DNA from: a virus
Taxonomy: Duplodnaviria; Caudoviricetes
Length of the DNA stretch: 64,000 nucleotides
Virus record (IMG/VR): IMGVR_UViG_3300027210_000001
Coordinates: 17,322 to 81,321 of that record
Direction: 5' to 3' (one strand)
Part shown: piece by piece, positions 1,603 through 17,884 of the stretch
How positions within the stretch are numbered: position 1 is the first letter of the stretch
How the letters are laid out: each line of letters begins with the position of its first letter
The notes under the pieces: generated by a model
The model's input: the letters and a program-made list of their open reading frames with translations, nothing else
The model's database searches: none
Told to the model about the DNA's origin: nothing
Program-made: the position numbers and the translations under genes

Positions 1603-1629
1603 GGACCTGGGATGTCCTTAAACTCATCC
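1603..1629 (+). promoter_or_regulatory. leader H-type pseudoknot motif, copy 1 (GGAC variant)
   Basis: Stem1 GGAC 1603-1606/GTCC 1614-1617, TTAAAC linker, weaker stem2; 21 nt before ATG 1651. Confidence 0.55.
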
Positions 1630-1650
1630 AGTCCAACTCAACCTAAACTC

Positions 1651-1848
1651 ATGAACTCAACTGAACTTCACGCCATGATTGCCCGCATGGACGGCTATGG
1701 CGGATCATTCGTATCCTCAATTGCACAAGCATTGCGCTTTGCTGATCCAAAGAATCGGCAGCGTTTGCTTGATGTATTCCCTGATCTTGTCCAGAAGTAT
1801 GGACCTGAAGGTCAGTTTGCTAAAGCCAAACAACTCACACAGGTGTAA
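1651..1848 (+). CDS. hypothetical protein
   Basis: Likely start MNSTELH at 1651; motif GGSFVSSIAQALRFADPKNRQRL. Confidence 0.8.
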   Translation: MNSTELHAMIARMDGYGGSFVSSIAQALRFADPKNRQRLLDVFPDLVQKYGPEGQFAKAKQLTQV

Positions 1849-1851
1849 CTC

Positions 1852-2100
1852 ATGAACGTGTTAGCAATTGAACACACAGTCATTGATGGTAACGATGTCA
1901 CAGTTACAGCAGTGGTTGATGACATGCGTCTCATCCATCGGTCAACTTACCTTGACCCTGAAGAATATGCTCCTGCATTGTGCAGAGCTAGCTTCGAACT
2001 GGATGAGGGAGAACAAATCCCTCTTGACGAAGATGGCTTCTGCAGCTATCTTACTGACCTCAACCCTAACTGGGAACTCCTCCCAGTAGATAACGACTGA
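1852..2100 (+). CDS. hypothetical protein
   Basis: 82-aa acidic ORF, 3 nt after previous stop. Confidence 0.8.
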   Translation: MNVLAIEHTVIDGNDVTVTAVVDDMRLIHRSTYLDPEEYAPALCRASFELDEGEQIPLDEDGFCSYLTDLNPNWELLPVDND

Positions 2101-2106
2101 CACTAT

Positions 2107-2135
2107 ACGTCCTGGACATGACGTTAAACTGTCCA
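2107..2135 (+). promoter_or_regulatory. leader H-type pseudoknot motif, copy 2
   Basis: ACGTC/GACGT (5 bp) and TGGACA/TGTCCA (6 bp), TAAAC linker; 28 nt before ATG 2164. Confidence 0.75.
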
Positions 2136-2163
2136 TCAACTCCGAACTTACTCCGAACTCACC

Positions 2164-3903
2164 ATGGAATTCCGTCTTCCCGCTAATCTTCAAACAGAAC
2201 TTCTTGCTTACGATCCCAAGCTTAAGCAACTGCAGCGTGAACAGAATCCTACTGCTAACAAAGCTAAGCCCAAGTTTCCACTTGGCGCAGTCTTTGATCT
2301 TATACCTGCTGATGTTGTTACACCAACAAAGCTTGAAGAAGTAGTAACTGATCTCAACGCCAGAAGTGTGGAACATCGTCACACTCGATTTACCAAGGTG
2401 GTAGATGTTGCTACTGCAACAGCACGCACCATTACTTATGCCATCATCTATTACTATGAGAAGGTATGGCATGCAGCATGGCTGCCGCCCAAAGGACAAG
2501 AAGATGACTACGTATATGGCTATGCTTATGCCTACAAGAATCTTGATTCAGTACGTAAGACAGTTCCGCATACTTTAATTGATAACAACAGTAGAGTAAC
2601 CGTTGACTATGTTAAGTACGGACGCAGTGAGTTCTGCGTTGTACGCCACAAGGTAACCAAGCAAGACATTGCTAATGGTAGAACAAACCGTTGGTGGAAT
2701 CCTACCTACATTTCATACGGCAAGGGTGGACAAATCAAGACAACCATATCAGCATTTGAATCCACACTCAGTGAAACCATACCCAAGTGGATTGATTCAC
2801 GTGGATTCTTTGACCGCATTGTAACTAATAACTGGGCTGCAATCCTGGGCATCAAAGATCGTTCACTTTATTGGAATACATTTGAGGATCCAGAACAAGC
2901 CAAGCGTGATGTAGTTCCATCTGCAGATTTGTTCTATGCATTTGCTGATGTGTACAAAAGCAATAATGATTATCACGCTCAGACTTATTGCATTGCTGAT
3001 CGCATCATGCATGTCATTGGCAAACCATTCTTCCGCAAGTGGATTCAATCCCAGTGTGATGAAGCCATTGCAATGTTTGAGAACGAAGACAACAATCTGT
3101 TTCGCAAGGTAACTCAACCTTGGAATCGTATTGAAAAGCTGGTGCAATCTATTGATTACATTAATAAGATTTGGCAGGATTGCCCTGTTGATTTTTATCA
3201 GACACATATTGAATATCTAATTGGCATCCGTCTTGATCGTCACGTAGCTGATAGTGTACAGCTATGGTTGCGCAATCACATGCAACCAGCTACATTCTTT
3301 CATATACTCAAGAAGCATTACGAAGATCAGGTCAACACTGATTCCAGTAGTTTGTCTTATTACACAAACAGTGAAACTGGCAAGCTGTCATTTTATTTCA
3401 CAGAATGGAATGACACATTGTCAATGGTTAGCGATGTCTTAACAAATCACGGTTCTCTAGAAGCGCCAAGGCGTTGGCGTCTTACTGAATTCCATGATCA
3501 TGTACAAGCAGAAGCATGGAAGATCAAACATCCAAACGCTAGCCTGCCTCAAGATCTATTCCCATCACCTGTCAAGGTTGAGGTGGGTGATGAACGCTGG
3601 TCATTCTTCCAGCCTCATGACACACATCAACTGTCAGCATGGGGCCAGGCCGTACGTAATTGCGTCGGCAATGCTAAGGACTATGCAGATGGTGTACGCA
3701 AGAAGAAGCATTTCATTGTGCTTTGCATGGTTGACAACAAGCCTCAGTTCACTGTTCAACTTAGAGTTGACATGGGTATGATGAGCGTCAGCCAGATCGT
3801 TGGCATGTCCAACCAACGGTTGACGGATGAGCAGAAGGATGCTTACACACAAGCCTTTAGCAAGGCATTGCATTCCCGCAATGATGAGCTAGAGTCTGCG
3901 TAG
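2164..3903 (+). CDS. PcfJ-like domain protein
   Basis: C-terminal QPHDTHQLSAWGQAVRNCVG...FTVQL matches the PcfJ-type L..EG..M.NCV motif. Confidence 0.7.
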   Translation: MEFRLPANLQTELLAYDPKLKQLQREQNPTANKAKPKFPLGAVFDLIPADVVTPTKLEEVVTDLNARSVEHRHTRFTKVVDVATATARTITYAIIYYYEKVWHAAWLPPKGQEDDYVYGYAYAYKNLDSVRKTVPHTLIDNNSRVTVDYVKYGRSEFCVVRHKVTKQDIANGRTNRWWNPTYISYGKGGQIKTTISAFESTLSETIPKWIDSRGFFDRIVTNNWAAILGIKDRSLYWNTFEDPEQAKRDVVPSADLFYAFADVYKSNNDYHAQTYCIADRIMHVIGKPFFRKWIQSQCDEAIAMFENEDNNLFRKVTQPWNRIEKLVQSIDYINKIWQDCPVDFYQTHIEYLIGIRLDRHVADSVQLWLRNHMQPATFFHILKKHYEDQVNTDSSSLSYYTNSETGKLSFYFTEWNDTLSMVSDVLTNHGSLEAPRRWRLTEFHDHVQAEAWKIKHPNASLPQDLFPSPVKVEVGDERWSFFQPHDTHQLSAWGQAVRNCVGNAKDYADGVRKKKHFIVLCMVDNKPQFTVQLRVDMGMMSVSQIVGMSNQRLTDEQKDAYTQAFSKALHSRNDELESA

Positions 3904-4528
3904 CCCGCACAGGCTTGCCAGCTAATTAACATAAAGGCATTGCATTGCATTGCATGTAAGTCCTTTTTATTAAGTCATGCCCACAAAGTTCCATCCAATG
4001 CCAGAGTTAAGTTTTTTAAAGCAACTGCTTTATGTTGATTCTTCTTCTCCTTCTGGATTGAGAAATAGAATAACTAGAAACTCAAAAGCAGTCAAAGATG
4101 CTATTGCTGGCAGAAGTAATGGACAAGGTTATTACCAAGTCCGTATAAAGAATGTATGTTATTCTGCGCATCGACTTGTTTGGTATTTGTCTACTTATTT
4201 AGATCCTGGTCTTGATTGTATTGATCATTCTGATGGCGATCAAACAAACAATGCAATTGAAAATTTACGCATTGCCAATTGGGCAGGCAACTCTTTCAAC
4301 AGAGCTAAGTCTGTTTCTAATACATCAGGTTATAAAGGTGTAAGTTTTAAAAAAGATAAACAGAAATGGTATGCCCAAATAAAAGCAAATGGAAAACATG
4401 TTTACTTGGGAACGTATACAAATCTAGAAGAAGCTGCAGAAGTCTATAATCAAGCAGCTCTTGCACATCATGGCATTTTTGCTCGTTTAAATAAGCTATG
4501 ATGTAGGCGAGCCCGCACAGCTTGCCAG
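3902..4528 (+). mobile_element. HNH-AP2 cassette flanked by ~20-bp imperfect direct repeats
   Basis: AGCCCGCACAGGCTTGCCAG 3902-3921 and AGCCCGCACAGCTTGCCAG 4510-4528; AT-rich interior. Confidence 0.6.
3977..4501 (+). CDS. HNH homing endonuclease with AP2 domain
   Basis: AHRLVW...IDHSDGDQTNNAIENLR (HNH) and NTSGYKGVSF...WYAQI...YLGTY (AP2). Confidence 0.9.
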   Translation: MPTKFHPMPELSFLKQLLYVDSSSPSGLRNRITRNSKAVKDAIAGRSNGQGYYQVRIKNVCYSAHRLVWYLSTYLDPGLDCIDHSDGDQTNNAIENLRIANWAGNSFNRAKSVSNTSGYKGVSFKKDKQKWYAQIKANGKHVYLGTYTNLEEAAEVYNQAALAHHGIFARLNKL

Positions 4529-4561
4529 TCGTGGCCTCGATACTAGGGCTGGCATTCACCT

Positions 4562-4786
4562 ATGACTGAGTACACCGACGACCAACTCCTAGCACAGGCA
4601 CTCTCCAATCTTGGTGAGTACATACATACTCATGGCACACCTGATTATGTGTTAGTTGATTCAGAAGATCCTCGCAATGAAGATGACTATGATACGTGGA
4701 GTTATGGCACTGAGCCATTACCCCATGACCACACTTGGCAGCATGCATCAATTGATGTAAGCATAAGTCCAAGTGAGCCCGAGTAG
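4562..4786 (+). CDS. hypothetical protein
   Basis: 74-aa acidic ORF; its stop codon lies in the first 10 nt of the tRNA gene. Confidence 0.7.
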   Translation: MTEYTDDQLLAQALSNLGEYIHTHGTPDYVLVDSEDPRNEDDYDTWSYGTEPLPHDHTWQHASIDVSISPSEPE

Positions 4787-4852
4787 CCCAGCGGAAGAGG
4801 CAAGCGACTTAAAATCGCTCCAGCGTGAGTTCGAATCTCACCTCGGGTACCA
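4777..4852 (+). tRNA. trnL-UAA: tRNA-Leu (UAA), 76 nt, short variable loop, encoded CCA
   Basis: Acceptor GCCCGAG/CTCGGGT, anticodon arm AGCGA-CTTAAAA-TCGCT, T arm GTGAG-TTCGAAT-CTCAC, A73, CCA. Confidence 0.93.
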
Positions 4853-4876
4853 AACTACACATTGCACATTTGAATT

Positions 4877-5089
4877 ATGTCAGCTCAAAACAATTATCTT
4901 GACATCATTGCTGCTTGCATAGGAGATGTTTCAGACTCCATTGATGCAATTGATACAAAAGACATTGTACTTTCAATCAGTGAACTAGCCAATGTCTTGA
5001 AAGAGACTAATAAACTATTGAAAGAAGTAGCTGATAGCAATAAAGCTATTGCTATGAATGCTTATCAATATGTAACAAACAAAGTTTGA
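4877..5089 (+). CDS. hypothetical coiled-coil protein
   Basis: 70-aa ORF with heptad-like pattern. Confidence 0.7.
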   Translation: MSAQNNYLDIIAACIGDVSDSIDAIDTKDIVLSISELANVLKETNKLLKEVADSNKAIAMNAYQYVTNKV

Positions 5090-5152
5090 TTAAACTTGGG
5101 CATCCGCAAGGTATAAGTCCCAAGTATCACCCATCTACTCAACTCAAACACA

Positions 5153-5515
5153 ATGAACATCTTTGCCTGTTTCAAGCACATCATCCCTGAGTTCCATGCA
5201 TATTCAGATGCCGACCAGCGTTACAACATTGGTGCTACCTGGACAGCTCAGGATGGTCTCCATGACTACCACAACTTAGAGATCAAGTACGTCCACAACT
5301 CTGAGCGGCTTGCGCTCCAGGGCGATCCACAGCCTGATGGCAGCTGGCGGTACGTAGCTCCTGATGGTGGCATCCATGTCATGTCAGCAGAGCGTGCACG
5401 TGCCTTCATGGAGCAGACCCATGCCCATGCCAACATCATGTGCGGCATGCTTGACCGCCTTAAGGAAAACGGAATGCTAGATCAGGTGGTAGACACGCAG
5501 GCCCAAGCAGCGTAG
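5153..5515 (+). CDS. hypothetical protein
   Basis: 120-aa ORF after an ACTCAACTC leader and GCAA hairpin. Confidence 0.8.
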   Translation: MNIFACFKHIIPEFHAYSDADQRYNIGATWTAQDGLHDYHNLEIKYVHNSERLALQGDPQPDGSWRYVAPDGGIHVMSAERARAFMEQTHAHANIMCGMLDRLKENGMLDQVVDTQAQAA

Positions 5516-5533
5516 AATCTATGCGGAATGTTC

Positions 5534-5562
5534 GGACCCCTGCGCAAGCGGGGGTCTTTCTC
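5534..5562 (+). terminator. GC-rich hairpin with GCAA loop, probable terminator or processing site
   Basis: GGACCCCTGC-GCAA-GCGGGGGTCT followed by TTTCTCT. Confidence 0.55.
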
Positions 5563-5563
5563 T

Positions 5564-5905
5564 ATGACTGAACACGACACTATTGATTTAGATCTCATTG
5601 ATCAGATTGTTGTACACATCCCTGATTGGGCATGGGATGCAGTTTGTCAGGTACTTGTACCAGCAATTGTAGATTCAATGCCTGGGTTTGTACTTGAGAA
5701 ATTGACTGGTAAGTATGACGGCTTTGATCGGGCAGAAGAAATTCTGTTTGATTACTACAAACCATTGGAGCGTAAACATGATTTAATTGTTGACTGCTTT
5801 AAGTTTGTTAGCCCGCATGTAACTGTCGACATGCTTGACGCTCTTGACCTAGATCAACTTCAATCCAACGAAACAAATGAAATGCCATCAGTGTCAATCA
5901 ACTAA
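5564..5905 (+). CDS. hypothetical protein
   Basis: Likely start MTEHDT at 5564, after the hairpin. Confidence 0.75.
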   Translation: MTEHDTIDLDLIDQIVVHIPDWAWDAVCQVLVPAIVDSMPGFVLEKLTGKYDGFDRAEEILFDYYKPLERKHDLIVDCFKFVSPHVTVDMLDALDLDQLQSNETNEMPSVSIN

Positions 5906-6215
5906 CACACGTGTCACGTGTACTGATCATCACGAGACATTAACCAAGCGCTACATCCGTTGCTTGGATTGCGGTTGTAAGTTTCGTACTATTGAAAAGT
6001 ATGAAGTGTACAAGCGTGGTCCTAAGAAAAGCGGTAAGCTTCCTGATACACAAGGATCTAAAAATGGATTCTCTGTGTTGACTGAGCAAAACATCTTGGA
6101 CATCCGCAAGTTGAAACAAGAAGGCAAAACTAATTTTGCTATCTCAGTTATCTACGGTATTAACCGTGGACATGTTTCAAAGATTGTCAACCGTAAAGTC
6201 TGGACTCACGTCTAA
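5877..6215 (+). CDS. NrdR-like zinc ribbon plus C-terminal HTH
   Basis: MKCHQCQSTNTRV...RYIRCLDCGCKFRTIE as in the NrdR N-terminus; no ATP-cone; HTH-like ISVIYGINRGHVSKIV. Confidence 0.7.
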   Translation: MKCHQCQSTNTRVTCTDHHETLTKRYIRCLDCGCKFRTIEKYEVYKRGPKKSGKLPDTQGSKNGFSVLTEQNILDIRKLKQEGKTNFAISVIYGINRGHVSKIVNRKVWTHV

Positions 6216-6511
6216 TGTCAAACAGAACCAATCGAATCTTTCAAGTTGGTGACCGTGTTGCCGAACGCCCCAAGACTCATGGCATGGTTGCAGTACGTGC
6301 TGAAGCCAGGGAAGAGGTAGCTAAGTATCGCAGCCAACGGTACGGAACAGTAGTTAACTTTACTTCCAAGAAGATTAAGTCTGGTGGTTACCAAAAGTTT
6401 CTTGTGATCCAATGGGATCATCTGCAAACACCATGCGAACATGCACGTGGTCGCATCTGTCACCTCGATGAGTTTCCGAAACTCATGCGTGAAACAACTG
6501 TTGTTTACTGA
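6215..6511 (+). CDS. hypothetical protein (SH3-like, FQVGDRV start)
   Basis: 98-aa ORF, TAATG coupling. Confidence 0.75.
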   Translation: MSNRTNRIFQVGDRVAERPKTHGMVAVRAEAREEVAKYRSQRYGTVVNFTSKKIKSGGYQKFLVIQWDHLQTPCEHARGRICHLDEFPKLMRETTVVY

Positions 6512-6516
6512 TTACC

Positions 6517-6876
6517 ATGACTGAACACCCGATTACCCCACCGCCTGAGCTGGTGGAGCAGTGGGTTCAAGCCACCGAGTCCAACGACTGTATCGGCGCA
6601 TTGCCGACGAACTTTGAGCAGCGCATCTGCATCGCTGCCGCCCAATGGGGCGCAGACCAACAACTTGCAAAAGATGCAGAGTGGCTAGATTACAATACCT
6701 TGAATGAACCGCATCTAAGAATTACTCCAATGGGTGAATCCTTAAAAGAAGCAATGCGCCCCAAGCCGCCGAGCTTGAAAGAGCAGGCGTTGGAGACACT
6801 CAAGTATCCAAAAGATTTTTGGAGTGAATCCGAGGTAGATACCATTCGTTTAGCACTGGAGCAACTTGATGACTGA
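6517..6876 (+). CDS. hypothetical protein, PITPPPELVEQW family
   Basis: Paralog of 1033-1407 at protein and DNA level. Confidence 0.8.
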   Translation: MTEHPITPPPELVEQWVQATESNDCIGALPTNFEQRICIAAAQWGADQQLAKDAEWLDYNTLNEPHLRITPMGESLKEAMRPKPPSLKEQALETLKYPKDFWSESEVDTIRLALEQLDD

Positions 6877-7060
6877 TCTTTCCCCTGCCAGTCAAGCAAT
6901 CCTTGATGCTATTGCTGAATGGGAAGTAGAACCTGATTCGTATTCCCGTCAAATTGTTATTGCTACTCTTTATGCATTAGCATCACGCATTAAGGGAGCC
7001 GACCATATTCGGCAAGACATTTTAGACATTGCCAACGAACTGGAGAACACTAATGACTGA
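6869..7060 (+). CDS. hypothetical protein (LSPA.QA.LDA family)
   Basis: MTDLSPASQAILDA ... IANELE; paralog of the next gene. Confidence 0.75.
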   Translation: MTDLSPASQAILDAIAEWEVEPDSYSRQIVIATLYALASRIKGADHIRQDILDIANELENTND

Positions 7061-7304
7061 ACTCTCCCCCGCCGCGCAGGCGGTGCTGGATGCGGCGAAT
7101 GGCGCCAACTCTTATGGCCCAGATGACTGCCTAAACGAATCCCGCTGGATTGCTGCCGCCGCCCTGCGAGCTGCTGCGGATCAAGTGGTGCCAGAGACTG
7201 CTCCTCCACTAATCGGCACACCTTTTGTGCGTTGGGACGCTATGGACGAGATCCGCGCCCAACTTCTCGTCATCGCCGCCGAGCTGGAGAACATCAATGG
7301 CTAG
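7053..7304 (+). CDS. hypothetical protein (LSPA.QA.LDA family)
   Basis: MTELSPAAQAVLDA ... IAAELE; GC-rich. Confidence 0.75.
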   Translation: MTELSPAAQAVLDAANGANSYGPDDCLNESRWIAAAALRAAADQVVPETAPPLIGTPFVRWDAMDEIRAQLLVIAAELENING

Positions 7305-7572
7305 TTATCTCACCAGGAAGATGACTGATAAAGACTTCTATCTTTCTCAGGCATCTAGGCCAAGACCTGCTACTGCTTTCAGTCAATACCGTGGTGTAAG
7401 CCGAGGTAACAAAGGGATGTACAGGGCAATGCTGACCTTCAAAGGGAAGCGTTACTACCTTGGCAACCATGTCAATGAGATTGATGCAGCACGTGCTTAC
7501 AACAAAGCAGCGCTTGCAATCATTGGTGACTATGCTTTACTAAACGAAATTCCAGGTGATGACAATGTCTAG
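7297..7572 (+). CDS. stand-alone AP2 domain protein
   Basis: SQYRGVSR...YRAMLTFKGKRYYLG...EIDAARAYNKAA; no HNH domain upstream. Confidence 0.85.
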   Translation: MASYLTRKMTDKDFYLSQASRPRPATAFSQYRGVSRGNKGMYRAMLTFKGKRYYLGNHVNEIDAARAYNKAALAIIGDYALLNEIPGDDNV

Positions 7573-9809: not shown

Positions 9810-9815
9810 CCTATC

Positions 9816-9842
9816 CGTCCTAAGCAAGACGTTAAACTGCTT
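9816..9842 (+). promoter_or_regulatory. leader H-type pseudoknot motif, copy 3
   Basis: CGTC/GACG and AAGCA/TGCTT, TTAAAC linker; followed by GCAA and GCAC hairpins. Confidence 0.7.
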
Positions 9843-9882
9843 GCCCCGCAAGGGGTCTGGTAAAGTTCCCGCACGGGAATAT

Positions 9883-9909
9883 GGACCCGAGATGTCCCTA
9901 AACTCATTC
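9883..9909 (+). promoter_or_regulatory. leader H-type pseudoknot motif, copy 4 (GGAC variant)
   Basis: GGAC/GTCC, GAG/CTC, CTAAAC linker; close in sequence to copy 1. Confidence 0.55.
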
Positions 9910-9942
9910 ATTAGTTCCGCTTATCAATCGCATTCAACACCA

Positions 9943-11178: not shown

Positions 11179-11412
11179 ATGTCTTACATGCTTGCTTGCT
11201 GGAGGTGGAACGAACCTTACGGGGTGACTGCCTCCAGTTCTTCTAATAAATTTGAGTTGATTCCGCTAGACTCAGACTCTGCATTATCCAAGGTATTTAG
11301 TCATCCGTACCGCTCGGGTGCACAGAAAATCTTGAGCTGGATCAAAGAGAATGACGACAGCATCAACAGTGAAGAACTCTCAATTCAAGATGTTGCCCGG
11401 TTCCAACGATGA
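11179..11412 (+). CDS. hypothetical protein
   Basis: 77-aa ORF whose ATG lies in the 3' arm of a 10-bp hairpin. Confidence 0.65.
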   Translation: MSYMLACWRWNEPYGVTASSSSNKFELIPLDSDSALSKVFSHPYRSGAQKILSWIKENDDSINSEELSIQDVARFQR

Positions 11413-13216
11413 ACGTTGGTTAATTTTTGACCTGGAGTCCGATGGTCTCTATGATAATGTGACGGTCATCCATTGCATTGTCATATATGACGTTGGACTC
11501 CAACAAACTTTTAGCTATGGGCCTGATCGCATTGCTGACGCTCTTGCTCATCTGGCAACCGCTGATGTTTTAATCGGCCACAACATCTTGTTTTATGACG
11601 TTCCTGTCTTAAGTAAACTGCATCCATCAATCCAACTCAACGGACGAATCATTGACACACTCATCTGCACCAGGCTCATCTGGCCCAAGGAAGTTCTCTA
11701 CGGTCGTGACGAAGAACAATATCCGCAGGTTCCGAAGGGTCTCAAGGGATCTGCATCCCTCAAGGCTTGGGGATGGCGGCTGGCCGATCACAAGATCGAC
11801 TTCAAAGACTTCAGTGAGTATTCCCAGGAGATGCTTGACTACTGCGTCCAAGATGTCAATGTCACTAAGAAACTATGGGAGCACATCGTTAAAGAAAAGT
11901 ATCCAGAGCCTGCGTTATTGCTTGAGCATTCTTTTGCCCTCGCGATTAACAAACAAATTAGATCAGGTATTTCATTTGATGTTGATGCAGCTCTTGATCT
12001 CGTGGATGATTTACGAGCAAAGAAAGAACAACTTGATGGAAAGCTAAAGGAAATTTTTCCACCTATTGAACACAAGAGTTTGTTCACCCCTAAGGTGAAC
12101 AATAAAACTCGTGGCTATGTCAAGGGTGTGCCCTTTGAAAAGGTAAGGACTGAACAGTTCAATCCTGGGTCCCGCCAACAAATTGTTGACCGACTCAAAA
12201 GTAAGTACGGTTGGGAACCAGAGAAGACAACTGAGAAAGGTAATCCAATTCTTGATGACGAAGTATTGGAGAAGCTTCCTTACCCTGAAGCACAAGCATT
12301 GGCTGAGTACATGCTTGTTGCTAAACGTCTAGGTCAACTTAAAGATGGCAACAATGCTTGGCTCAAGTTGGTGAACAATGACAGTGGCCGTATGCACGGT
12401 GATGTCGTTACCAACGGATGCATCACAGGTCGTTGTGCACATCGTTATCCAAACATGGGTCAAGTACCTGCAGGTTATTCACCCTATGGAAAAGAATGCC
12501 GTTCGTTATTTCATGCTCCTGATGGTTGGGATCTTATTGGGATCGACGCTAAAGCTTTGGAGCTTAGGTGTCTTGCTGGGTACCTAGCCCTTTGGGATGA
12601 CGGTGAGTACGCATCAATTGTCACTAACCCTGATATTGATATTCATGTGTACAACCAAGAGAAGTTTAATGTTGAAACACGTGATATCAGTAAACGTTTG
12701 TTGTACGGAATGTTATATGGTTGTGGCGCCGTCAAGGCGGGCACAATTATTGACCCGAATGAAAAAGATGAATTTGTTCTGCGAAAACTAGGAAAGAACG
12801 CAATCGATTCATTCATGACCGGTGTGCCAGCACTGAAGCAACTGAAGGAAAAGATTGAATCTAATATTGCATTCCGCAGTTACTTGATAGGACTAGACCG
12901 TCGCATCTTGTATTGCCGGTCTGCATTCAAAGGGTTGAACGTGTTGTTGCAATCAGCAGGTGCAATTATCATGAAGCAAGTTGTTGTCACGATTCACAAC
13001 AACATTGAACAGAACCTTGGCTTGGTATATGGCCAGGGGTGGGAGCAGGCTCTCATGGTCCACGATGAGATTCAACTTGTGTGTAACCCCGTGAACACTG
13101 AGCAGATCAGGGAGCAGGCTATGCTTGCCTTCCCAGCAGCTGGGGACTTCTTTGATTTTCGTTGCAAAATTGAAGGTGACTCCAGAGTTGGATACACTTG
13201 GGCGGAGACGCACTAG
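11390..13216 (+). CDS. polA: family A DNA polymerase with 3'-5' exonuclease (T7 gp5-like, Tyr762 type)
   Basis: Exo I FDLE, Exo II GHNILFYD, Exo III YCVQD; motif A IDAKALE, motif B KRLLYGMLYG, motif C VHDE. Confidence 0.96.
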   Translation: MLPGSNDERWLIFDLESDGLYDNVTVIHCIVIYDVGLQQTFSYGPDRIADALAHLATADVLIGHNILFYDVPVLSKLHPSIQLNGRIIDTLICTRLIWPKEVLYGRDEEQYPQVPKGLKGSASLKAWGWRLADHKIDFKDFSEYSQEMLDYCVQDVNVTKKLWEHIVKEKYPEPALLLEHSFALAINKQIRSGISFDVDAALDLVDDLRAKKEQLDGKLKEIFPPIEHKSLFTPKVNNKTRGYVKGVPFEKVRTEQFNPGSRQQIVDRLKSKYGWEPEKTTEKGNPILDDEVLEKLPYPEAQALAEYMLVAKRLGQLKDGNNAWLKLVNNDSGRMHGDVVTNGCITGRCAHRYPNMGQVPAGYSPYGKECRSLFHAPDGWDLIGIDAKALELRCLAGYLALWDDGEYASIVTNPDIDIHVYNQEKFNVETRDISKRLLYGMLYGCGAVKAGTIIDPNEKDEFVLRKLGKNAIDSFMTGVPALKQLKEKIESNIAFRSYLIGLDRRILYCRSAFKGLNVLLQSAGAIIMKQVVVTIHNNIEQNLGLVYGQGWEQALMVHDEIQLVCNPVNTEQIREQAMLAFPAAGDFFDFRCKIEGDSRVGYTWAETH

Positions 13217-13227
13217 TAAAATCAATC

Positions 13228-13254
13228 CGTCCTAAGTAAGACGCTAAACTGCTT
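13228..13254 (+). promoter_or_regulatory. leader H-type pseudoknot motif, copy 5
   Basis: CGTC/GACG and AAGTA/TGCTT (one G-U), CTAAAC linker; 21 nt before the SSB-like ATG. Confidence 0.7.
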
Positions 13255-13275
13255 TAACACTTCACATCGGATTTA

Positions 13276-14088
13276 ATGAACTTCGTTGACGTTTGCGCCA
13301 TTCTTTGCGAGGACCCTCGTGAGGTGTACACCAGTGCAACCTCTTCCAACTACTGTGCTGAAGTAACGCTTCCGCCAGTTGGCAACAAAGCTCCAACCCA
13401 TCTCATCTTCAATGTATACGGAAAGTCCTGCGACAAGTTCAAGCAACTTAAGAAGGGACAACGTGTGTACATTCACGGCGCCAAGCTACGGTATGATCTT
13501 GAAGCAAAAGCACACTCACTCCATGGAGGAGTGGTTGCTCAAATTACTGAAGCATTCCCTCTCTTCAACGACGTTATCTTGACTGGTCGCTGTGTCAAAG
13601 ACATTGACCAGAATGATGCACGTGCCTTCAAGACAACAGCTGATGGCTTAATGATCTGTAGCCAAACACTATCAGTTAATACTGGTCGCAACCAGGCTGA
13701 TCTGTTTAACTTCTACGCAATTAACACTGCGCAAGATAAGTTGAACCAAGCTGAACTTCTGCTTAACTTCACCAGGAAAGGCACTGGTCTTACAATCCGT
13801 GGCCGCTTGGCAACAGATGTATGGACCGATAAGGAAACAAAAGAACGTCGTAGCCTTACCAAGATCCAGCTGGTGTCCATGACCTTGGCACCCAAGCAGG
13901 CTGACTCTCAGCCAAAGACAGTGACTACGCAAACAACCGTGGCTGAATCCACGAACGTTGCTAGCCTATGGGGCGGACGTAGCGTTGAAGAGGACTCTGA
14001 TCCTTGGACACGTACCTCTGGTGGCGGCCTGCCTGACCTGCCTGGTCAATATGGCGCAGCACCTACTCTCAGTGAAGAACCCTTTTGA
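13276..14088 (+). CDS. single-stranded DNA-binding protein-like (two OB-like repeats, acidic tail)
   Basis: LKKGQRVYIHG and TRKGTGLTIRGRLATDVWTDKETKE (SSB-like); disordered tail ending EEPF. Confidence 0.7.
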   Translation: MNFVDVCAILCEDPREVYTSATSSNYCAEVTLPPVGNKAPTHLIFNVYGKSCDKFKQLKKGQRVYIHGAKLRYDLEAKAHSLHGGVVAQITEAFPLFNDVILTGRCVKDIDQNDARAFKTTADGLMICSQTLSVNTGRNQADLFNFYAINTAQDKLNQAELLLNFTRKGTGLTIRGRLATDVWTDKETKERRSLTKIQLVSMTLAPKQADSQPKTVTTQTTVAESTNVASLWGGRSVEEDSDPWTRTSGGGLPDLPGQYGAAPTLSEEPF

Positions 14089-14333
14089 TTGCCATGACAA
14101 TTCAAGTTGACTGCTTTGATTCCACTCCTCTTTCTTTTGAGGACGTAGTGGCTTATGAGTTCTTTATGGACAACATAAGCTTTTTTTTCCGAGAGAAAGA
14201 ACAAAGCGGAGAAGAGTTTGCGCAATCAGTTGCAACGCTTGCCAGGTCTGCTTACTTGATTGCAGAAGTTTTTGCTGATGCACGCAAGCTTCGGCTTGAA
14301 TCCAACAGCGAGGAAACCAATGTCGAAAGCTGA
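14085..14333 (+). CDS. hypothetical protein
   Basis: 82-aa ORF coupled to neighbours. Confidence 0.65.
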   Translation: MIAMTIQVDCFDSTPLSFEDVVAYEFFMDNISFFFREKEQSGEEFAQSVATLARSAYLIAEVFADARKLRLESNSEETNVES

Positions 14334-14559
14334 TCAACGGATGAAGTTTACTTTGGAAGAAGAAGATTACACCATCGTATTTCAAAGCGATGGTGTCACC
14401 ACTGATGAAATCCTTGAGCACTTCGTAATGTTTATGAAGGGCTGTGGGTACCAAGAGGACAGCATCTACTCCTCGTTCCAGGAAACCCTGGATGAACGTG
14501 AAGCTTTGTCAAAGGCTCACGCTCTCTATGACGTGGCTGGCTGCAAAGACCTAGTATGA
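14320..14559 (+). CDS. hypothetical protein
   Basis: Likely start MSKADQ; TTDEILEHFVMFMKGCGY motif. Confidence 0.7.
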   Translation: MSKADQRMKFTLEEEDYTIVFQSDGVTTDEILEHFVMFMKGCGYQEDSIYSSFQETLDEREALSKAHALYDVAGCKDLV

Positions 14560-14564
14560 GCACC

Positions 14565-14591
14565 CGCCTCGGGATGGCGTTAAAAGCGTCC
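14565..14591 (+). promoter_or_regulatory. leader H-type pseudoknot motif, copy 6
   Basis: Compensatory stem1 CGCC/GGCG, stem2 GGAT/GTCC, TTAAAAGC linker; 22 nt before ATG 14614. Confidence 0.6.
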
Positions 14592-14613
14592 ACAACCAAA
14601 CCCTGAACAAACT

Positions 14614-15633
14614 ATGACTGCCTCGATGACTACCAAGAAAACCTCTGCGCTTGCAACCCGTGGCCTGGAATCTTTTAAACTTTTTCAATCAAAAGAATTC
14701 GTCTCAGGCTACCAAAACCTCGTTACTATTCAGCCCCTCAACAAATCCAAGACACGAGGTTGGTTCGTGCGGAACTCGGACCTTGACACTTGCGGATGGA
14801 ATGCCACTGAAAGTGACTTTGCTAAGGGTTCAGTTATCTGGAACTACAAGCAAACTTTTGGTATGGCTCCCAACACTTCAATTGAAGAAGGACTCAATTT
14901 TGTTGAGCCTCGTATTCAGATCCTTCTACGTTCTCCCCTTATGGTTGAGGAAACCACAGGGATGAGGCAGACGATTGGCACCTTTGACAATCCTGAAGTC
15001 AAAGAGATGTGGGAAGCTGACAAGATTGCAGCCGAACTGGAAGGCAGCAAGGGCAATCTCTACAAGCGTAAGTACAGTGTACGTACAAAGTACCTGGTGT
15101 ATGTCTTGACCCAAGACAACAAGCGTGCCCATAAGATCCCCATGGTGTTGACACTGAAGGGATTGAATGGCACCGATGTCAGCGACAAAGTCAAGATGTA
15201 TGAAAAGGAAATGTCCAAGTGTCTGAGCAAGGCACTGGATGCTGAAGTACCTCTGAGCTTCAATGAAAAGTTCTACGCAACTACCGTATTTGCTCCAGTA
15301 CTTGCCAACGAAATGCGCGGAGCCAACAACGTTGAGATCTGTGCAATTGAATCTTTTGACATTCCTGGTTACAGCACCCAAGAAGAAGCAGTCGAATCAC
15401 TGAGTCGCATGTCGATTCCTGATGAAGATCGTGAATCTACTTGGAAGTACCAAGAGCTGTTCAATGATTACATCAACATCCATGCCAAGCAGGATGCGCA
15501 AAAGCTTGGCGGTGCCTATGGCATCAAAGAAGGTGTCGAGATCCTTCCGGTGTCTCGCACCATGGATGCAGTCGAAGTGAAAGCTTTGCCTGGCCGTAAT
15601 GAACTCACGGGTGAGGACAATAGCCTCAGCTGA
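14614..15633 (+). CDS. conserved hypothetical protein (possibly DUF5895-like, replication/recombination region)
   Basis: 339-aa ORF with strong codon bias; PRIQILLRSPL motif. Confidence 0.75.
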   Translation: MTASMTTKKTSALATRGLESFKLFQSKEFVSGYQNLVTIQPLNKSKTRGWFVRNSDLDTCGWNATESDFAKGSVIWNYKQTFGMAPNTSIEEGLNFVEPRIQILLRSPLMVEETTGMRQTIGTFDNPEVKEMWEADKIAAELEGSKGNLYKRKYSVRTKYLVYVLTQDNKRAHKIPMVLTLKGLNGTDVSDKVKMYEKEMSKCLSKALDAEVPLSFNEKFYATTVFAPVLANEMRGANNVEICAIESFDIPGYSTQEEAVESLSRMSIPDEDRESTWKYQELFNDYINIHAKQDAQKLGGAYGIKEGVEILPVSRTMDAVEVKALPGRNELTGEDNSLS

Positions 15634-15853
15634 GTGAGTCGGTGATGTCCTTGGCTTTGCTTGAGTAATTCTCATGCATCAAGTTAAGGGCATCATTCAC
15701 TAATCCTTTGATAGCCATTTGTCGTGTTGTTGCAATCTTTGTCAACAGCACGGCAATTTCTTTTAGTTCACTAAGAGATGTACAGTCATTAATTGTTCTG
15801 AACATTTTCTCTTGCCAAAACAGATCCTCTGCAGATGATTCAAATTTCAACAT
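15626..15853 (-). CDS. hypothetical protein
   Basis: 75-aa helical ORF filling the gap on the opposite strand. Confidence 0.65.
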   Translation of the reverse strand: MLKFESSAEDLFWQEKMFRTINDCTSLSELKEIAVLLTKIATTRQMAIKGLVNDALNLMHENYSSKAKDITDSLS

Positions 15854-15933
15854 GAGATTAAATTGTTTAGGTCCATTCTAATTGTTACATTTAAACTGAG
15901 TTCAAACCATTTGATTGTGTTAAGGATTACCAA

Positions 15934-16125
15934 ATGAAACCTGAAGATAGAGCAGCTGTCAAGGCTGCGGGTGTTACGTTTCTTGTAGCGGGTGCTGCCG
16001 CTGCACTCATTGCAAATCCTGTAGCTTGGGGCGTGGCTGCCTTCGGCTCGTATAGGATGGGCAAGTTGGCACGCAAGAATGTCAAGGAGCAGCACCAGGA
16101 GAACGACCAGGACCTCTTCATCTAA
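15934..16125 (+). CDS. small hydrophobic protein
   Basis: Ala/Gly-rich hydrophobic segment. Confidence 0.65.
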   Translation: MKPEDRAAVKAAGVTFLVAGAAAALIANPVAWGVAAFGSYRMGKLARKNVKEQHQENDQDLFI

Positions 16126-16139
16126 CTTAACTCAGACTC

Positions 16140-17081
16140 ATGCAACTCCAAACCGAACTCAACTCAGCTCAAGCCCTCATCTACTCTCGGTCTAATATTG
16201 GTCGTGCGTATGCAGGTTTTGATGACACCGAAATCTCTGGCATTTATCTGCGAGATGACAATTGTATTGTGGTGCGTCGTGATGGTGATGAGCAGGCTTA
16301 CGACCGGACGTTGATCAAGACTGCGTTCCAGCAGTATACTCACCGACTCAAGGACTTCTTTTCTTACCTTGGCCCTAATTACCGTGGCCCTAGCGTATGG
16401 CATAACAATGCTTACGTTATGTTTAAGGGCTGGAACTACTCACACGCACTCGGACACCTGACTTCCAATGCCAAGCTCCAACAACACTGGGCAGACAAGT
16501 TTATCCATCTGTCAGACCCAGGTAAAGTCGTTGCCCTCCTCCAAAATGACCAGACGGATCTGGGACATCTGGTTGCGCCGGATGGGCTTCGGAGTCCGAC
16601 TCGGCCAATTGACTTGGAGTCTGAGCTGGAGGAAAACGCCTCCGGTGTTCAGGCCAGCACTCCTGAACCTTACTGTTCATGTGGGTCCTTTCAGCGTCAA
16701 CTTCTTGATGTTTCGTTATTCCAACAAGAGATTGAAGGATTCAAACCCTGGTGCATCCACCTGACTTGGTTCCATAAGTACCGTGAGTTGTTGTGCAAAC
16801 GGACTGAGGTGCGTAATGCATTGCTCAGTGGTACACCTGACAAGTGTGTGGCATGGTGGTATGCGCCTCCTGTTGATCACCTCAGCGATGGCAAGTTTGT
16901 ACTGCTGCATACCAAGTCTGGTGCTCAGGCTCCACTGACTCACTGGCGTACGTACAAACCTAAGGAGGTGTTCAACCAAACGCATGCCTGGGATCTATTT
17001 TTCAATATGATGGAGGCTGGCTACGTACCATTTCCTGGTACTGCACTGCCACAACTTCAATCTGCAATCAAAAAGAAATGA
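16140..17081 (+). CDS. SWIM zinc-finger protein
   Basis: YCSCGSF...WCIH (CxC...CxH). Confidence 0.75.
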   Translation: MQLQTELNSAQALIYSRSNIGRAYAGFDDTEISGIYLRDDNCIVVRRDGDEQAYDRTLIKTAFQQYTHRLKDFFSYLGPNYRGPSVWHNNAYVMFKGWNYSHALGHLTSNAKLQQHWADKFIHLSDPGKVVALLQNDQTDLGHLVAPDGLRSPTRPIDLESELEENASGVQASTPEPYCSCGSFQRQLLDVSLFQQEIEGFKPWCIHLTWFHKYRELLCKRTEVRNALLSGTPDKCVAWWYAPPVDHLSDGKFVLLHTKSGAQAPLTHWRTYKPKEVFNQTHAWDLFFNMMEAGYVPFPGTALPQLQSAIKKK

Positions 17082-17245
17082 CTGAGCAACCAACTAACTG
17101 CATTACATTCAATGTACCGCCAACAGAAGAGGTCATGCGCCTCGACAAAGAAGGCTTCCACTACCGGGGTCAGTTCATTGCTGATGCTGGTGAAGCATAC
17201 CGATTGATGGTGGAGTTCCTCAAGCAACAAACACAGCTCAAATGA
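17078..17245 (+). CDS. hypothetical protein (55 aa, not in ORF track)
   Basis: MTEQPTNCITF...QTQLK*, ATGA overlaps at both ends. Confidence 0.75.
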   Translation: MTEQPTNCITFNVPPTEEVMRLDKEGFHYRGQFIADAGEAYRLMVEFLKQQTQLK

Positions 17246-17445
17246 CTAATCAAAAACTAACTATGACTTTGATTGAGAAGCTTGAAGTAGAAGTTATTCA
17301 TGAAGAGGATGGTGGTTGCATTATCCGTGTTCATTGGGACAATGAAGATCCAGATCTTGAAGACTGGACAAACCTTGGTGAAGAAGGACAAAAATCCTTT
17401 ATCATTGATGCATTAACCAACGCACTTGCTTGCTATGTCGATTGA
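17242..17445 (+). CDS. hypothetical protein
   Basis: 67-aa acidic ORF. Confidence 0.7.
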   Translation: MTNQKLTMTLIEKLEVEVIHEEDGGCIIRVHWDNEDPDLEDWTNLGEEGQKSFIIDALTNALACYVD

Positions 17446-17830
17446 CACTTACGGCCTTGATGAAGATCGCTACCTTGAGATCTTTGAAGAGAAGTCTACG
17501 TTTCTTTTTAAAACAATGCGTGCACTTATTCGCGCATCAATGGATCAAAATGTAGATCTTAATGGGTGGCCCCATGATGTGATTTGGAGAATGTATGAGA
17601 GTGTTACATACGATGCCAATGATGAGGCTCGTGTGATCCAAAAGACTGAAGACCCTGAGAAAATTGCAGAGCGCTCTTACGATCCAATTACAATGTTTAC
17701 GCGTCAGGATTTGATGGATGAAATTAAATCCGTCGATGCCAAGGTCGAAGCATTGACTGACTACCTTGCTGAGTTGGTTAAGGTCACAACCAATGGACTC
17801 GACGGCATTGCCGAAACCCTGGTAGACTGA
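17426..17830 (+). CDS. hypothetical protein
   Basis: 134-aa ORF with C-terminal coiled coil. Confidence 0.75.
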   Translation: MLAMSIDTYGLDEDRYLEIFEEKSTFLFKTMRALIRASMDQNVDLNGWPHDVIWRMYESVTYDANDEARVIQKTEDPEKIAERSYDPITMFTRQDLMDEIKSVDAKVEALTDYLAELVKVTTNGLDGIAETLVD

Positions 17831-17856
17831 CCAGGTGCCTTAGGGCATGCATGTAC

Positions 17857-17884
17857 CGTCCTGGTCACGACGTAAAACTGACCA
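17857..17884 (+). promoter_or_regulatory. leader H-type pseudoknot motif, copy 7
   Basis: CGTC/GACG and TGGTCA/TGACCA, TAAAAC linker; 19 nt before ATG 17904. Confidence 0.75.

Follow-up and report, generated by a model that had tools for sequence, protein, structure and literature searches.

A Compact H-Type RNA Pseudoknot at Gene Boundaries of Phages and Some Bacteria, with a Likeness to Coremin

Results and Discussion

The polycistronic mRNA of the phage analyzed here carries a self-folding, compact H-type RNA pseudoknot. The fold is established by covariation, and the analysis also shows its strand, geometry, spread, and likeness to coremin. The same knot was found between genes in hundreds of other phages and in some bacteria, and it belongs to no Rfam family. 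It is more likely to be a general barrier or insulator at gene boundaries than a private switch of this phage.

Pseudoknot Copies in the Phage Genome

The 81-kb phage genome contains nine copies of the pseudoknot, seven of them in the window (the whole stretch of 64,000 nt that was analyzed) and two just 5' of it, at genome positions 15463 and 15906 (contig L116). All seven copies listed in a preliminary description of the window are present on the + (gene) strand; the copy given there at 2107 is better placed at 2108. A structure-aware scan of the window found no copy of comparable quality on the - strand or past position 17884. A loose pattern omitting the 3' strand of stem 2 matched five window sites, with 0.08 expected from shuffles. 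The compensatory stem changes described earlier are correct. Six of the nine copies belong to type A, which has 28 nt, namely a stem 1 (S1) of 4 bp, a loop 1 (L1) consisting of C, a stem 2 (S2) of 6 bp, a loop 2 (L2) of 1 nt, and a loop 3 (L3) of NNAAAC. The remaining three copies (1603, 9883, and 14565) form a separate subtype, type B, in which the loop is 7 nt long, the junction base is missing, and S2 is bulged or shifted. The covariance model of type A (R1) gave only 13.2 bits on the type B copy at 1603. Type B is backed by a G8:C26 to A8:U26 change in orthologous copies from related contigs. The knots of the window and the segments next to them are as follows.

1603..1630, + strand: pseudoknot type B, GGAC-CUGGGAU-GUCC-UUAAAC-UCAUCCA, 5 nt past the stop of ORF 1400-1597
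1631..1650, + strand: 20-nt spacer poor in G and lacking a Shine-Dalgarno sequence, including CAACUCAA, up to ATG 1651 of a 65-aa ORF
2108..2135, + strand: pseudoknot type A, CGUC-C-UGGACA-U-GACG-UUAAAC-UGUCCA, 7 nt past the stop at 2100
2136..2163, + strand: spacer of 28 nt repeating the CUCCGAACU motif, up to ATG 2164 (PcfJ-like protein, 579 aa)
9816..9843, + strand: pseudoknot type A, first of a tandem pair, 6 nt past the stop of ORF 8679-9809; R1 score 42.4 bits
9844..9879, + strand: two small hairpins between the tandem knots
9883..9910, + strand: pseudoknot type B, GGAC-CCGAGAU-GUCC-CUAAAC-UCAUUCA
9911..9942, + strand: spacer of 32 nt, up to ATG 9943 (GP88-family protein, 253 aa)
13228..13255, + strand: pseudoknot type A, 11 nt past the stop at 13216; R1 score 35.9 bits
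13256..13275, + strand: spacer of 20 nt, up to ATG 13276 of the SSB (PF00436, 270 aa)
14565..14592, + strand: pseudoknot type B, CGCC-UCGGGAU-GGCG-UUAAAA-GCGUCCA, 5 nt past the stop at 14559
14593..14613, + strand: spacer of 21 nt, up to ATG 14614 (DUF5895 protein, 339 aa)
17857..17884, + strand: pseudoknot type A with UAAAAC as L3, 26 nt past the stop at 17830; R1 score 38 bits
17885..17903, + strand: spacer of 19 nt (CAACUCAA), up to ATG 17904 of a 37-aa ORF, followed by the Gp157-like gene at 18021

The typical layout consists of a stop codon, 5-7 nt, the knot, a G-poor spacer of 19-32 nt without a Shine-Dalgarno sequence, and ATG. As described earlier, six window copies lie close 5' of a start codon, the knot-to-ATG distances being 20, 28, 32, 20, 21, and 19 nt. 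In place of a start codon, copy 9816 is followed by two hairpins and copy 9883; the hairpin CCCC-GCAA-GGGG at 9844-9855 abuts S2 of copy 9816, and UUCCCG-CA-CGGGAA lies at 9866-9879. The nine copies precede eight different genes in this phage, and the names PcfJ-like, GP88, SSB, and Gp157 given to products of downstream genes were reproduced.

Several copies are retained in relatives. Identical or covarying orthologues of copy 1603 occur in contigs L003, L011, L053, L045, L050, and L071. Copy 2108 scored 46.5 bits with R1 (E 4e-9), and orthologous PcfJ leaders retain the knot with a compensatory S2. The ssb knot is retained in the SSB leaders of seven related contigs and of the cultured relative S-EIVl. 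An alternative helix, AAUCCG/CGGAUU, around the ssb knot is absent as a conserved feature in the seven orthologous leaders; therefore, no switch is claimed. Read-through or fusion of neighboring ORFs was also rejected, given the in-frame stops inside the 2108 knot and the differing frames at the other junctions.

Covariation, Strand, and Geometry of the Fold

Covariation was found in both stems when they were left unconstrained, over more than 250 sites in viral contigs and about 90 in bacterial genomes. With S1 fixed and S2 free, 131 of 147 viral sites paired at 5-6 of 6 positions. With S2 fixed and S1 free, complete pairing (4/4) was obtained at 81 of 107 sites with more than 40 stem sequences, compared with 2 of 107 in the control placed 4 nt upstream. 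In an alignment of 133 sequences, 94% of the cells were paired, versus 20-45% after sliding; seven of ten pairs changed on both sides, and none of 500 shuffles matched. Leaders of orthologous proteins with 40-87% identity retain the knot with compensating changes. The closing pair C4-G13 was invariant (132 of 132 aligned sequences), and a C-G closing pair is present in all type A window copies. A structure-only scan returned NNAAAC as L3, C as L1 without exception, and a C-G closing pair in 70 of 72 cases.

The knot lies on the gene strand in all nine copies of this phage and at 237 of 260 viral sites, and it is therefore an RNA element and not a DNA one. The strand-independent DNA element considered in the preliminary description gives way to a strand-specific, covarying RNA pseudoknot. 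A DNA-level signal, such as a promoter, an origin, or a recombination site, is hardly conceivable, although the site is annotated as a promoter in two Staphylococcus phage records. Besides the strand bias, two interleaved covarying helices are unreadable as a duplex-DNA site, the positions are tied to stop and start codons, and no conserved -35 or -10 box was found in the flanks of 132 sites.

Between the stop codon and the knot, 5 nt is both a sharp lower limit and the commonest distance (56 sites, compared with 22 at 6 nt). From the knot to ATG, the floor is 19 nt and the mode 20-22 nt. The spacer contains 8-14% G, is unpaired, and lacks a Shine-Dalgarno sequence.

Searches Against Known RNA Classes and Signals

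No Rfam family reached its gathering threshold in the window, in positions 1-20000, or in an 81-nt slice, which were also searched at E<=10. The only Rfam model that aligned was RF01106 (SBWMV1_UPD-PKb), with 14.9 bits and E 2.7 in the 81-nt search and a gathering score of 38. For RF03003 (GP20-b, threshold 36.2 bits), the window gave no match at E<=10, and the Staphylococcus phage, S-EIVl, and Vibrio phage records and the L292 genome gave none; three sub-threshold matches in the L224 genome (best 17.8 bits, E 0.42) did not fall at the knot. A promoter and terminator scan of positions 1-19000 found nothing tied to the knots. Among the public sequencing runs listed as containing this DNA, none is of RNA. 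In the literature on xrRNA, coremin, or pseudoknot motifs in phages, no description of this knot family was found.

A stimulator of -1 frameshifting of the luteovirus type, which calls for a knot 5-8 nt past a slippery heptamer within overlapping ORFs, was rejected, since the knots lie past stop codons and each downstream gene starts at an ATG of its own, in whichever frame; the information profile upstream of the knots contained no conserved slippery heptamer. An intrinsic terminator was likewise rejected for the window copies, none of which is followed directly by a U-run; about 13% of the family elsewhere possess one.

The preliminary description had proposed a replication and recombination regulon read by the phage SSB, or else a ligand sensor. 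Co-regulation of the marked genes, whether through an operator bound by a phage protein (the SSB, on the model of T4 gene 32) or through a riboswitch for a small ligand, appears very improbable. The arrangement at ssb, a knot with an unstructured leader conserved in S-EIVl and seven related contigs, corresponds to that of the T4 gene 32 operator. However, the SSB here is an OB-fold protein of PF00436 and not gp32, the same knot precedes dozens of unrelated genes, and its carriers, phages and bacterial chromosomes of many phyla, have no common phage protein shown. The regulon also fits poorly with the many hosts, the bacterial array ends, and the other early leaders of this phage considered below. 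The unrelated downstream genes and a 1-nt junction, which leaves no obvious pocket, make a ligand sensor unlikely; neither the preQ1-I riboswitch (RF00522) nor any other riboswitch matched at E<=10, and no queuosine genes lie downstream of the knots.

Distribution and Neighboring Genes

In S-EIVl, at least seven copies lie between annotated genes, and the GenBank CDS annotation of that phage gives the same spacing for seven copies. The phages with the knot include those of Staphylococcus, Lactobacillus, Mycobacterium, Arthrobacter, Paracoccus, Vibrio, and cyanobacteria, and nearly all matches in cultured phages belong to hosts among the Bacillota, Actinomycetota, cyanobacteria, and Alphaproteobacteria. 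Among the BLAST matches listed, those in Ralstonia, Shigella, and Pseudomonas were partial, lay inside annotated genes, and were taken as chance; a further four matches were recorded for Pectobacterium. The downstream genes elsewhere encode scaffold, PhoH, glutaredoxin, and many unknown proteins.

The spacing to the start codon would fit a translation-initiation module. The knot would anchor the 5' side of a leader that lacks a Shine-Dalgarno sequence, would hold the adjacent A/C-rich stretch (U-rich in Shine-Dalgarno hosts) single-stranded, and may dock on the 30S platform or protein S1 for de novo loading on the downstream gene. Of the 260 viral copies, 143 end 19-32 nt ahead of an ATG with the sharp mode given above, the spacer is G-poor and unpaired, phages of hosts using Shine-Dalgarno sequences show the order knot, U-run, Shine-Dalgarno sequence, start codon, and proteins in high demand, such as SSB and scaffold, are encoded downstream. 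Nevertheless, the distance to the start codon is not fixed but has a lower limit and a long tail; a start codon within 32 nt is lacking in about 45% of the viral and 70% of the bacterial copies. Other early leaders of the same phage carry a plain hairpin in the place of the knot, followed by the same A/C-rich spacer, and some copies stand at the end of a gene array, ahead of a hammerhead, or in tandem. Coremin, the viral element compared below, hinders the passage of ribosomes and does not recruit them (PMC10520033). Overall, an initiation module is unlikely.

The position relative to the stop codon may point to the upstream gene. The knot could be a 3'-end element, left a few bases past the stop by cleavage in the spacer (by RNase E or an adjacent hammerhead) or by termination at a U-run; it would then block 3'-to-5' exonucleases, or be the terminator structure itself, and stabilize the upstream message. 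Proximity to the stop (5-7 nt) is kept even with long intergenic regions. In bacterial genomes, the upstream stop codon governs the position of the knot more than a downstream start does: 27 of 36 stop-proximal copies have a downstream gene that is far or absent, and the knot lies at the 3' end of a gene array in 25 cases versus 6 at an array start. A U-run directly follows the knot at 35 of 260 viral and 12 of 88 bacterial sites, where 3.8 and 2.4, respectively, were expected, type III hammerheads are predicted to cut 6-7 nt past the knot in L292 and L242, and coremin itself is usually a 3'-UTR element (PMC6546385; PMC10520033). Against this, the window copies lack the U-run and all except 9816 are start-proximal, 3' protection could be had from a plain GC hairpin, and the conserved A-rich loop on S1 and the C of L1 are features that stiffen pseudoknots against pulling from the 5' side. 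A 3'-end element is given a low probability, the same as that of the initiation module.

Proposed Barrier at Cistron Boundaries

The preferred reading, which we hold tentatively and at somewhat less than even chances, is a protein-independent mechanical barrier and insulator at cistron boundaries. Among the alternatives of the preliminary description, the 5'-exonuclease roadblock is the best fit, by its match to coremin; a resistance to nucleases or ribosomes and the enzyme that would be blocked are inferred. S1 (4 bp) is closed by the invariant C-G pair, with the single C as L1; S2 (~6 bp) forms between the hairpin loop and the 3' tail, with a 1-nt junction, and the 6-nt NNAAAC loop is expected to lie in the minor groove of S1. 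Such a knot would work without a dedicated protein. It would sit just outside the footprints of both the terminating upstream ribosome (floor of 5 nt past the stop) and the initiating downstream ribosome (floor of ~19-20 nt before AUG). Decay in the 5'-to-3' direction, by RNase J or 5'-end-dependent RNase E, would be stopped from the 5' side of the knot, as would ribosomes arriving from upstream. In that case, the downstream cistron, with its unstructured A/C-rich landing pad, would retain a stability and a translation rate of its own.

The plain hairpins found at the same place in the early leaders without a knot fit a generic boundary role. The hosts fit as well: cyanobacteria carry RNase J (PMC12464536), and the matches in cultured phages come almost wholly from the host groups named above.

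Other observations run against a barrier. A genuine copy in a clade of Vibrio phages weakens a strict limitation to hosts with RNase J, which gammaproteobacterial hosts are not known to possess. For Xrn1 resistance, both coremin and its Watson-Crick variant need a second hairpin, which most phage copies do not have, the 20 nt after the knot being G-poor and unpaired. In addition, the second loop base is U and not the G needed in coremin. Ribosome-footprint floors are expected of any RNA structure that must stay folded. The stop-codon tie in bacteria, the array ends, the U-runs, and the hammerheads also fit 3'-end protection or termination.

A stronger version of the barrier is doubtful. According to it, DNA phages and some bacteria would possess a true class of exoribonuclease-resistant RNA sharing the fold of coremin, in which a 28-nt protein-independent knot punctuates polycistronic mRNAs, stops RNase J, 5'-end-dependent RNase E, and ribosomes where one gene meets the next, and sets cistron-specific stability. 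We know of exonuclease-resistant RNAs only from eukaryotic RNA viruses. If true, prokaryotes would have their first such class, one minimal mechanical RNA device would be common to different kingdoms, and the fold would be a general solution wherever long messages need partitioning. It would add a missing layer of post-transcriptional gene punctuation to phage biology and offer synthetic biology a very small operon insulator. The natural six-pair S2 without a second hairpin would also test the still unsolved structural model of coremin.

Comparison with Coremin and Other Known Systems

Coremin (xrRNA-C) is found in BNYVV, cucumoviruses, and many other eukaryotic RNA viruses (Dilweg et al. 2019, PMC6546385; 2023, PMC10520033). 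The architecture of the phage knot is the one proposed for coremin, the model of the coremin authors being the same H-type knot (PMC10321173). The BNYVV coremin is CGUC-CGAA-GACG-UUAAACUAC, and the phage consensus is CGUC-CUGAGCAU-GACG-UUAAACUGCUCA. The hairpin stem, of 3-4 bp in the definition of coremin, has 4 bp in both and closes with a C-G pair; CGUC/GACG, more frequent in phages than any other stem, is also the BNYVV one. Both have C as the first loop base, the UUAAACU spacer, and a penultimate loop A that pairs with the U after the C of the spacer. Functional coremin loops have 6-8 nt, and tandem copies and locations a few bases past a stop codon or between genes are common to both.

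In coremin, the change of U13U14 to AA is tolerated, C5 can be changed only to U, and A16, A17, C18, U19, and the C-G closing pair are essential (PMC6546385; PMC10520033); in the natural variation of the phage knot, too, the two U's change and AAAC does not, and NNAAAC-U is conserved exactly where mutagenesis demands. The whole spacer stretch A16-A20 is essential in coremin, and its second hairpin is needed for Xrn1 resistance (PMC6546385; PMC10520033). The equivalent of A20, position 24 of the phage knot, is G or A (G in 87% of sites), and of the copies in this phage only 9816 is abutted by a hairpin. Relative to the coremin loop consensus YG(N)nAD, the first C, the penultimate A, and the last base (mostly U/A, with C in ~13%) of the phage loop fit, and the second base, U, does not. 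The type B loops CGAGAU, CGGGAU, and UGGGAU fit YGNNAD with one extra 5' base. The loop-tail contact also differs, with 2-3 non-canonical positions in coremin versus ~6 Watson-Crick pairs in the phage knot. Coremin belongs to eukaryotic RNA viruses, and the phage knot to DNA phages and to bacteria, in which the 5' exonuclease, RNase J, has no relation to Xrn1. Coremin blocks scanning ribosomes and drives frameshifting (PMC10520033; PMC10321173).

The Watson-Crick S2 variant xrRNA-WCC was selected in vitro, occurs naturally in Sanxia picorna-like virus 5, and resists Xrn1 but, like coremin, needs hairpin 2 to do so (PMC10321173). It shares with the phage knot the H-type model, a 1-nt L1, and a canonical antiparallel S2 between the hairpin loop and the bases past UUAAA, and it stimulates frameshifting without the second hairpin; its S2 has only 3 bp, and its L1 is G and not C. 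The RF01106 model is also an H-type knot, of 25 nt, aligned as CG..(loop)..CG-UUAAAC-UGU.C; it describes a pseudoknot of the upstream pseudoknot domain in the 3'-UTR of soil-borne wheat mosaic virus, beside a tRNA-like structure. The T4/T2 gene 32 operator shares a compact H-type knot, a 1-nt first loop, an unstructured leader, and the gene for an ssDNA-binding protein. It differs in sequence and stem sizes and is a single-gene, autogenous element read by gp32, whereas the phage knot marks multiple genes across many phage groups.

Pseudoknot Copies in the Phage Genome

The phage genome is a single contig of 81,321 bp, of which the window comprises bases 17322-81321; the Synechococcus phage S-EIVl was its sole close DNA match among cultured phages. 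The seven copies of an H-type RNA pseudoknot (knot) claimed in the preliminary description were each found at their positions on the + strand. All were recovered by a structure-aware scan of both strands of the window, which revealed no other site of comparable quality. A loose pattern lacking the 3' strand of stem 2 (S2) gave 5 matches versus 0.08 expected. Two extra copies were located directly upstream of the window by the whole-genome scan (genome positions 15463 and 15906), making a total of nine, and the covariance-model search detected none beyond those already known.

Knots and other features of the window
1603, + strand: knot, 5 nt after a stop codon, 20 nt before an ATG
2108, + strand: knot, 7 nt after a stop codon, 28 nt before an ATG
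4777-4849, + strand: tRNA gene (56.5 bits) amid early genes
5490-5557: promoter-like TAGACA, 17 nt, TAGAAT, with a strong terminator-like hairpin immediately after it (GGACCCCUGC-GCAA-GCGGGGGUCU and a U-rich tail); overlaps ORF 5153-5515 at its end and ORF 5528-5905 at its start
9816, + strand: tandem knot, 6 nt after a stop codon, start codon absent
9883, + strand: tandem knot, upstream stop codon absent, 32 nt before an ATG
13228, + strand: knot, 11 nt after a stop codon, 20 nt before an ATG
14565, + strand: knot, 5 nt after a stop codon, 21 nt before an ATG
17857, + strand: knot, 26 nt after a stop codon, 19 nt before an ATG

Six copies belong to the 28-nt type A, N3C-C-U(N4)A-N-GN3-NNAAAC-U(N4)A. 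In the three type B copies (1603, 9883, and 14565), the loop is 7 nt long, the junction base is missing, and S2 is bulged or shifted; orthologues of these copies in related contigs carry a G8:C26 to A8:U26 change. Tandem knots, abutting or 70-75 nt apart, were observed at window 9816-9910 and in contigs L235 (1375-1435), L286 (2567-2625), and L074 (4620-4796), the last of which, labelled a giant-virus MAG, has three in succession.

Covariation of the Stems

Each stem was assessed on data where it was not imposed. For S2, IMG/VR was scanned with stem 1 (S1) and the loops fixed and with the S2 interior and the whole S2 3' strand free. This yielded at least 147 sites in at least 115 loci; among the 147 sites listed, 97 had 6/6 and 34 had 5/6 S2 pairs, formed by many differing sequences. 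In the converse scan (S2 fixed, both S1 halves free), 4/4 pairs were found in 81 and 3/4 in 24 of the 107 non-redundant sites, with more than 40 different S1 pairs; the control, 4 nt directly upstream, paired fully in just 2/107. In an alignment of 133 sequences, standard pairs made up 94.3% of cells versus 20-45% with slid partners, both sides changed in 7 of 10 pairs, and none of 500 shuffles reached the observed values. The knot is also kept at the same position, with compensating changes, in orthologous leaders of PcfJ-like, GP88, SSB, DUF5895, and 65-aa proteins (38-87% identical). The covariation first proposed from seven copies was thereby borne out for both stems where they were left free.

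Distribution among Phages and Bacteria

The knot family is much broader than this one phage. When one variant was compared by BLAST with cultured phages, it turned up in 85 Staphylococcus phages, between the genes for head morphogenesis and the one immediately preceding the major head protein, as well as in Lactobacillus, Streptococcus, Bacillus, Moorella, Mycobacterium, Arthrobacter, Paracoccus, Lentibacter, Nostoc, Microcystis, and Synechococcus phages and one Vibrio phage clade. The covariance model, built from type A sequences, scored the Staphylococcus copy at E 4e-6 and the Vibrio copy at E 2e-4, neither being in the training set. Records KP893289 (B166) and KT344895 (phiJB) label the Staphylococcus phage knot a promoter.

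Scanning 185,579 species genomes gave 97 sites, of which 73 have 5/6 or 6/6 S2 pairs; the sites occur in Saccharibacteria, many Bacillota, Phytoplasma, Chloroflexota, and Alphaproteobacteria, and no well-paired site was detected in Gammaproteobacteria. In a Bradymonadales MAG (L229:1750-1870) and a Calditrichia MAG (L264:5100-5200), the 28-nt knot lies inside a CRISPR spacer with 36-37-nt direct repeats on either side, so these hosts have acquired spacers against the phage element. In Erysipelotrichaceae and Bacilli MAGs (L248:6467-6530, L250, L228, L269, and L282), a helix AUUACCU ... AGGUAAU encloses the knot, and its 3' strand includes the Shine-Dalgarno sequence of a small MKYYT... gene; the enclosed knot looks like a Shine-Dalgarno-sequestering platform.

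Downstream genes in viral contigs encode PcfJ (14), GP88 (12), SSB (8), DUF5895 (5), PhoH (3), glutaredoxin (3), and scaffold proteins (5, and one DUF4355 scaffolding protein), and no Pfam family stood out for most of the 150 downstream proteins. On the strand bearing long ORFs lie 237 of 260 viral sites. From the preliminary reading of a translational regulon, an uncatalogued RNA knot in leaders was retained, and the regulon private to this phage was abandoned given the wide spread and diverse genes. Recognition by SSB as an operator, or sensing of a ligand, fits the spread, gene diversity, and strand bias poorly and is improbable; any role at the DNA level fits them poorly too and is hardly credible.

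Position between Cistrons

Spacing between the upstream stop codon and the knot has 5 nt as both its sharp floor and its mode (5 nt in 56, 6 nt in 22, and 4 nt in 6 cases), and spacing from the knot to the next ATG peaks at 20-22 nt above a floor of 19 nt. In the 20 nt 3' of the knot, G makes up just 8-14% and no Shine-Dalgarno sequence occurs; promoter boxes are absent from the flanks, which are otherwise not conserved. In the independent GenBank annotation of S-EIVl, seven model matches lie 5-11 nt past a CDS and 20-28 nt ahead of the next one, which in one case is the ssDNA-binding protein gene. Ribosomes reach ~12 nt beyond the P site at termination and ~20 nt upstream of the AUG at initiation. 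Both floors equal this reach, and the knot is thus positioned so that neither a terminating nor an initiating ribosome need melt it.

Given its site between two cistrons, outside the reach of either ribosome and beside an unstructured landing pad, the knot is best read as a candidate protein-independent barrier and insulator, a plausible role if still short of probable. It would keep 5'-to-3' decay and upstream ribosomes away from the leader and cistron that follow. RNase J is present in cyanobacteria (PMC12464536), and other early leaders of the same phage have the same CAACUCAA-type spacer with ordinary hairpins in front; both agree with a generic boundary role.

In five early leaders without a knot (13860-13922, 14422-14499, and 14755-14835 in L116, the whole-genome contig; window 436-543 and 5090-5155), a stable hairpin (z -2.6 to -4.4) precedes ~10-30 nt of unpaired A/C-rich sequence (25-30 nt in 3/5), which carries CAACUCAA-like words up to the ATG; knot leaders have the same layout. 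The PcfJ-like and DUF5895 leaders (window 2136-2163 and 14593-14613) have a conserved word, CUACGAAC, CUCCGAAC, or CUGAAC, right before the ATG, often doubled, which also occurs in orthologous leaders of L003, L041, L135, L047, L064, L215, L050, and L181. This word and the CAACUCAA of other leaders may define two leader classes.

Association with Stop Codons and 3' Ends

Copies in bacterial genomes are linked chiefly to the stop codon upstream of them: 36 of 88 sites are at most 11 nt from a stop, with the downstream gene distant or absent in 27 of the 36, and the knot ends a gene array 25 times and starts one 6 times. A U-run directly follows the knot at 35/260 viral and 12/88 bacterial sites, five to nine times the expectation. 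At two loci of Bacillota (L292 and L242), the knot has a type III hammerhead 3' of it with the GUC cleavage site 6-7 nt past the knot, which after cleavage would sit at a 3' end. All three observations fit a 3'-end or terminator element, which we regard as unlikely. A genuine copy is carried by a Vibrio phage, whose host group is not known to have RNase J. The stop-tying, U-runs, hammerheads, and Vibrio copy weigh against the barrier and keep alive the 3'-end or terminator reading as well as that of a translation-initiation platform, to which a similarly small probability is assigned.

In L292 (Firmicutes CAG:95; - strand, 2176, 3158, 5118, and 5669) and at L242:2259, knots lie 6-7 nt past a stop codon and are directly followed by a hammerhead-like core (GUC, hairpin, CUGAUGA or CCGAUGA, hairpin, GAAAC), with a Shine-Dalgarno sequence and the next gene ~70-100 nt further on. 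Two L292 copies exceed the gathering threshold for RF00008 type III hammerheads.

Comparison with Known RNAs

No Rfam family was found at threshold. In the 81-nt search, the sole aligned model was RF01106 (plant-virus 3'-UTR pseudoknot; CG..CG-UUAAAC-UGU.C), with 14.9 bits versus a threshold of 38, and RF03003 (GP20-b) gave no usable score on any record tested. The phage consensus is CGUC [CUGAGCAU] GACG UUAAAC UGCUCA. Coremin, an exonuclease-resistant RNA of plant and other eukaryotic RNA viruses, reads C1-G-U-C4 [C5-G-A-A8] G9-A-C-G12 U13-U-A-A-A-C18-U19-A-C in BNYVV (numbering of Dilweg 2019, PMC6546385). Its authors model an H-type knot with hairpin 1 as S1, nucleotide 5 as loop L1, and nucleotides 6-8 with 18-20 as S2. 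Coremin blocks scanning ribosomes and stimulates -1 frameshifting, and a version with a Watson-Crick S2, selected and also natural in a picorna-like virus, kept Xrn1 resistance (PMC10321173).

A structure-only scan, with the loop sequence not imposed, returned NNAAAC as loop L3, with variation confined to the first two bases (TT 55, CT 5, TA 5, AT 4, AA 3, and TC 2). In the 72 matches with L3 at most one mismatch from TTAAAC, L1 was always C and the closing pair was C-G in 70. In coremin mutagenesis, U13U14 to AA was tolerated, A16, A17, C18, and U19 were essential, C5 was changeable to U alone, and the C-G closing pair was required (Dilweg 2019, PMC6546385). The natural loop and closing-pair variation of the phage knot follows this tolerance map at these positions. 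Conserved in the knot are an A-rich loop, expected to lie on S1, and a single C that crosses S2, features likened by the coremin authors to those stiffening luteovirus frameshift knots against 5'-end pulling.

Unlike coremin, the phage knot has six S2 pairs, U instead of G as the second loop base, and mostly G at the base matching A20; it also lacks a second hairpin, a requirement for Xrn1 resistance in coremin. The long S2 may provide the helical stack that hairpin 2 supplies in coremin. The element of these DNA phages is a knot of the coremin type whose S2 is fully Watson-Crick and which has no second hairpin.
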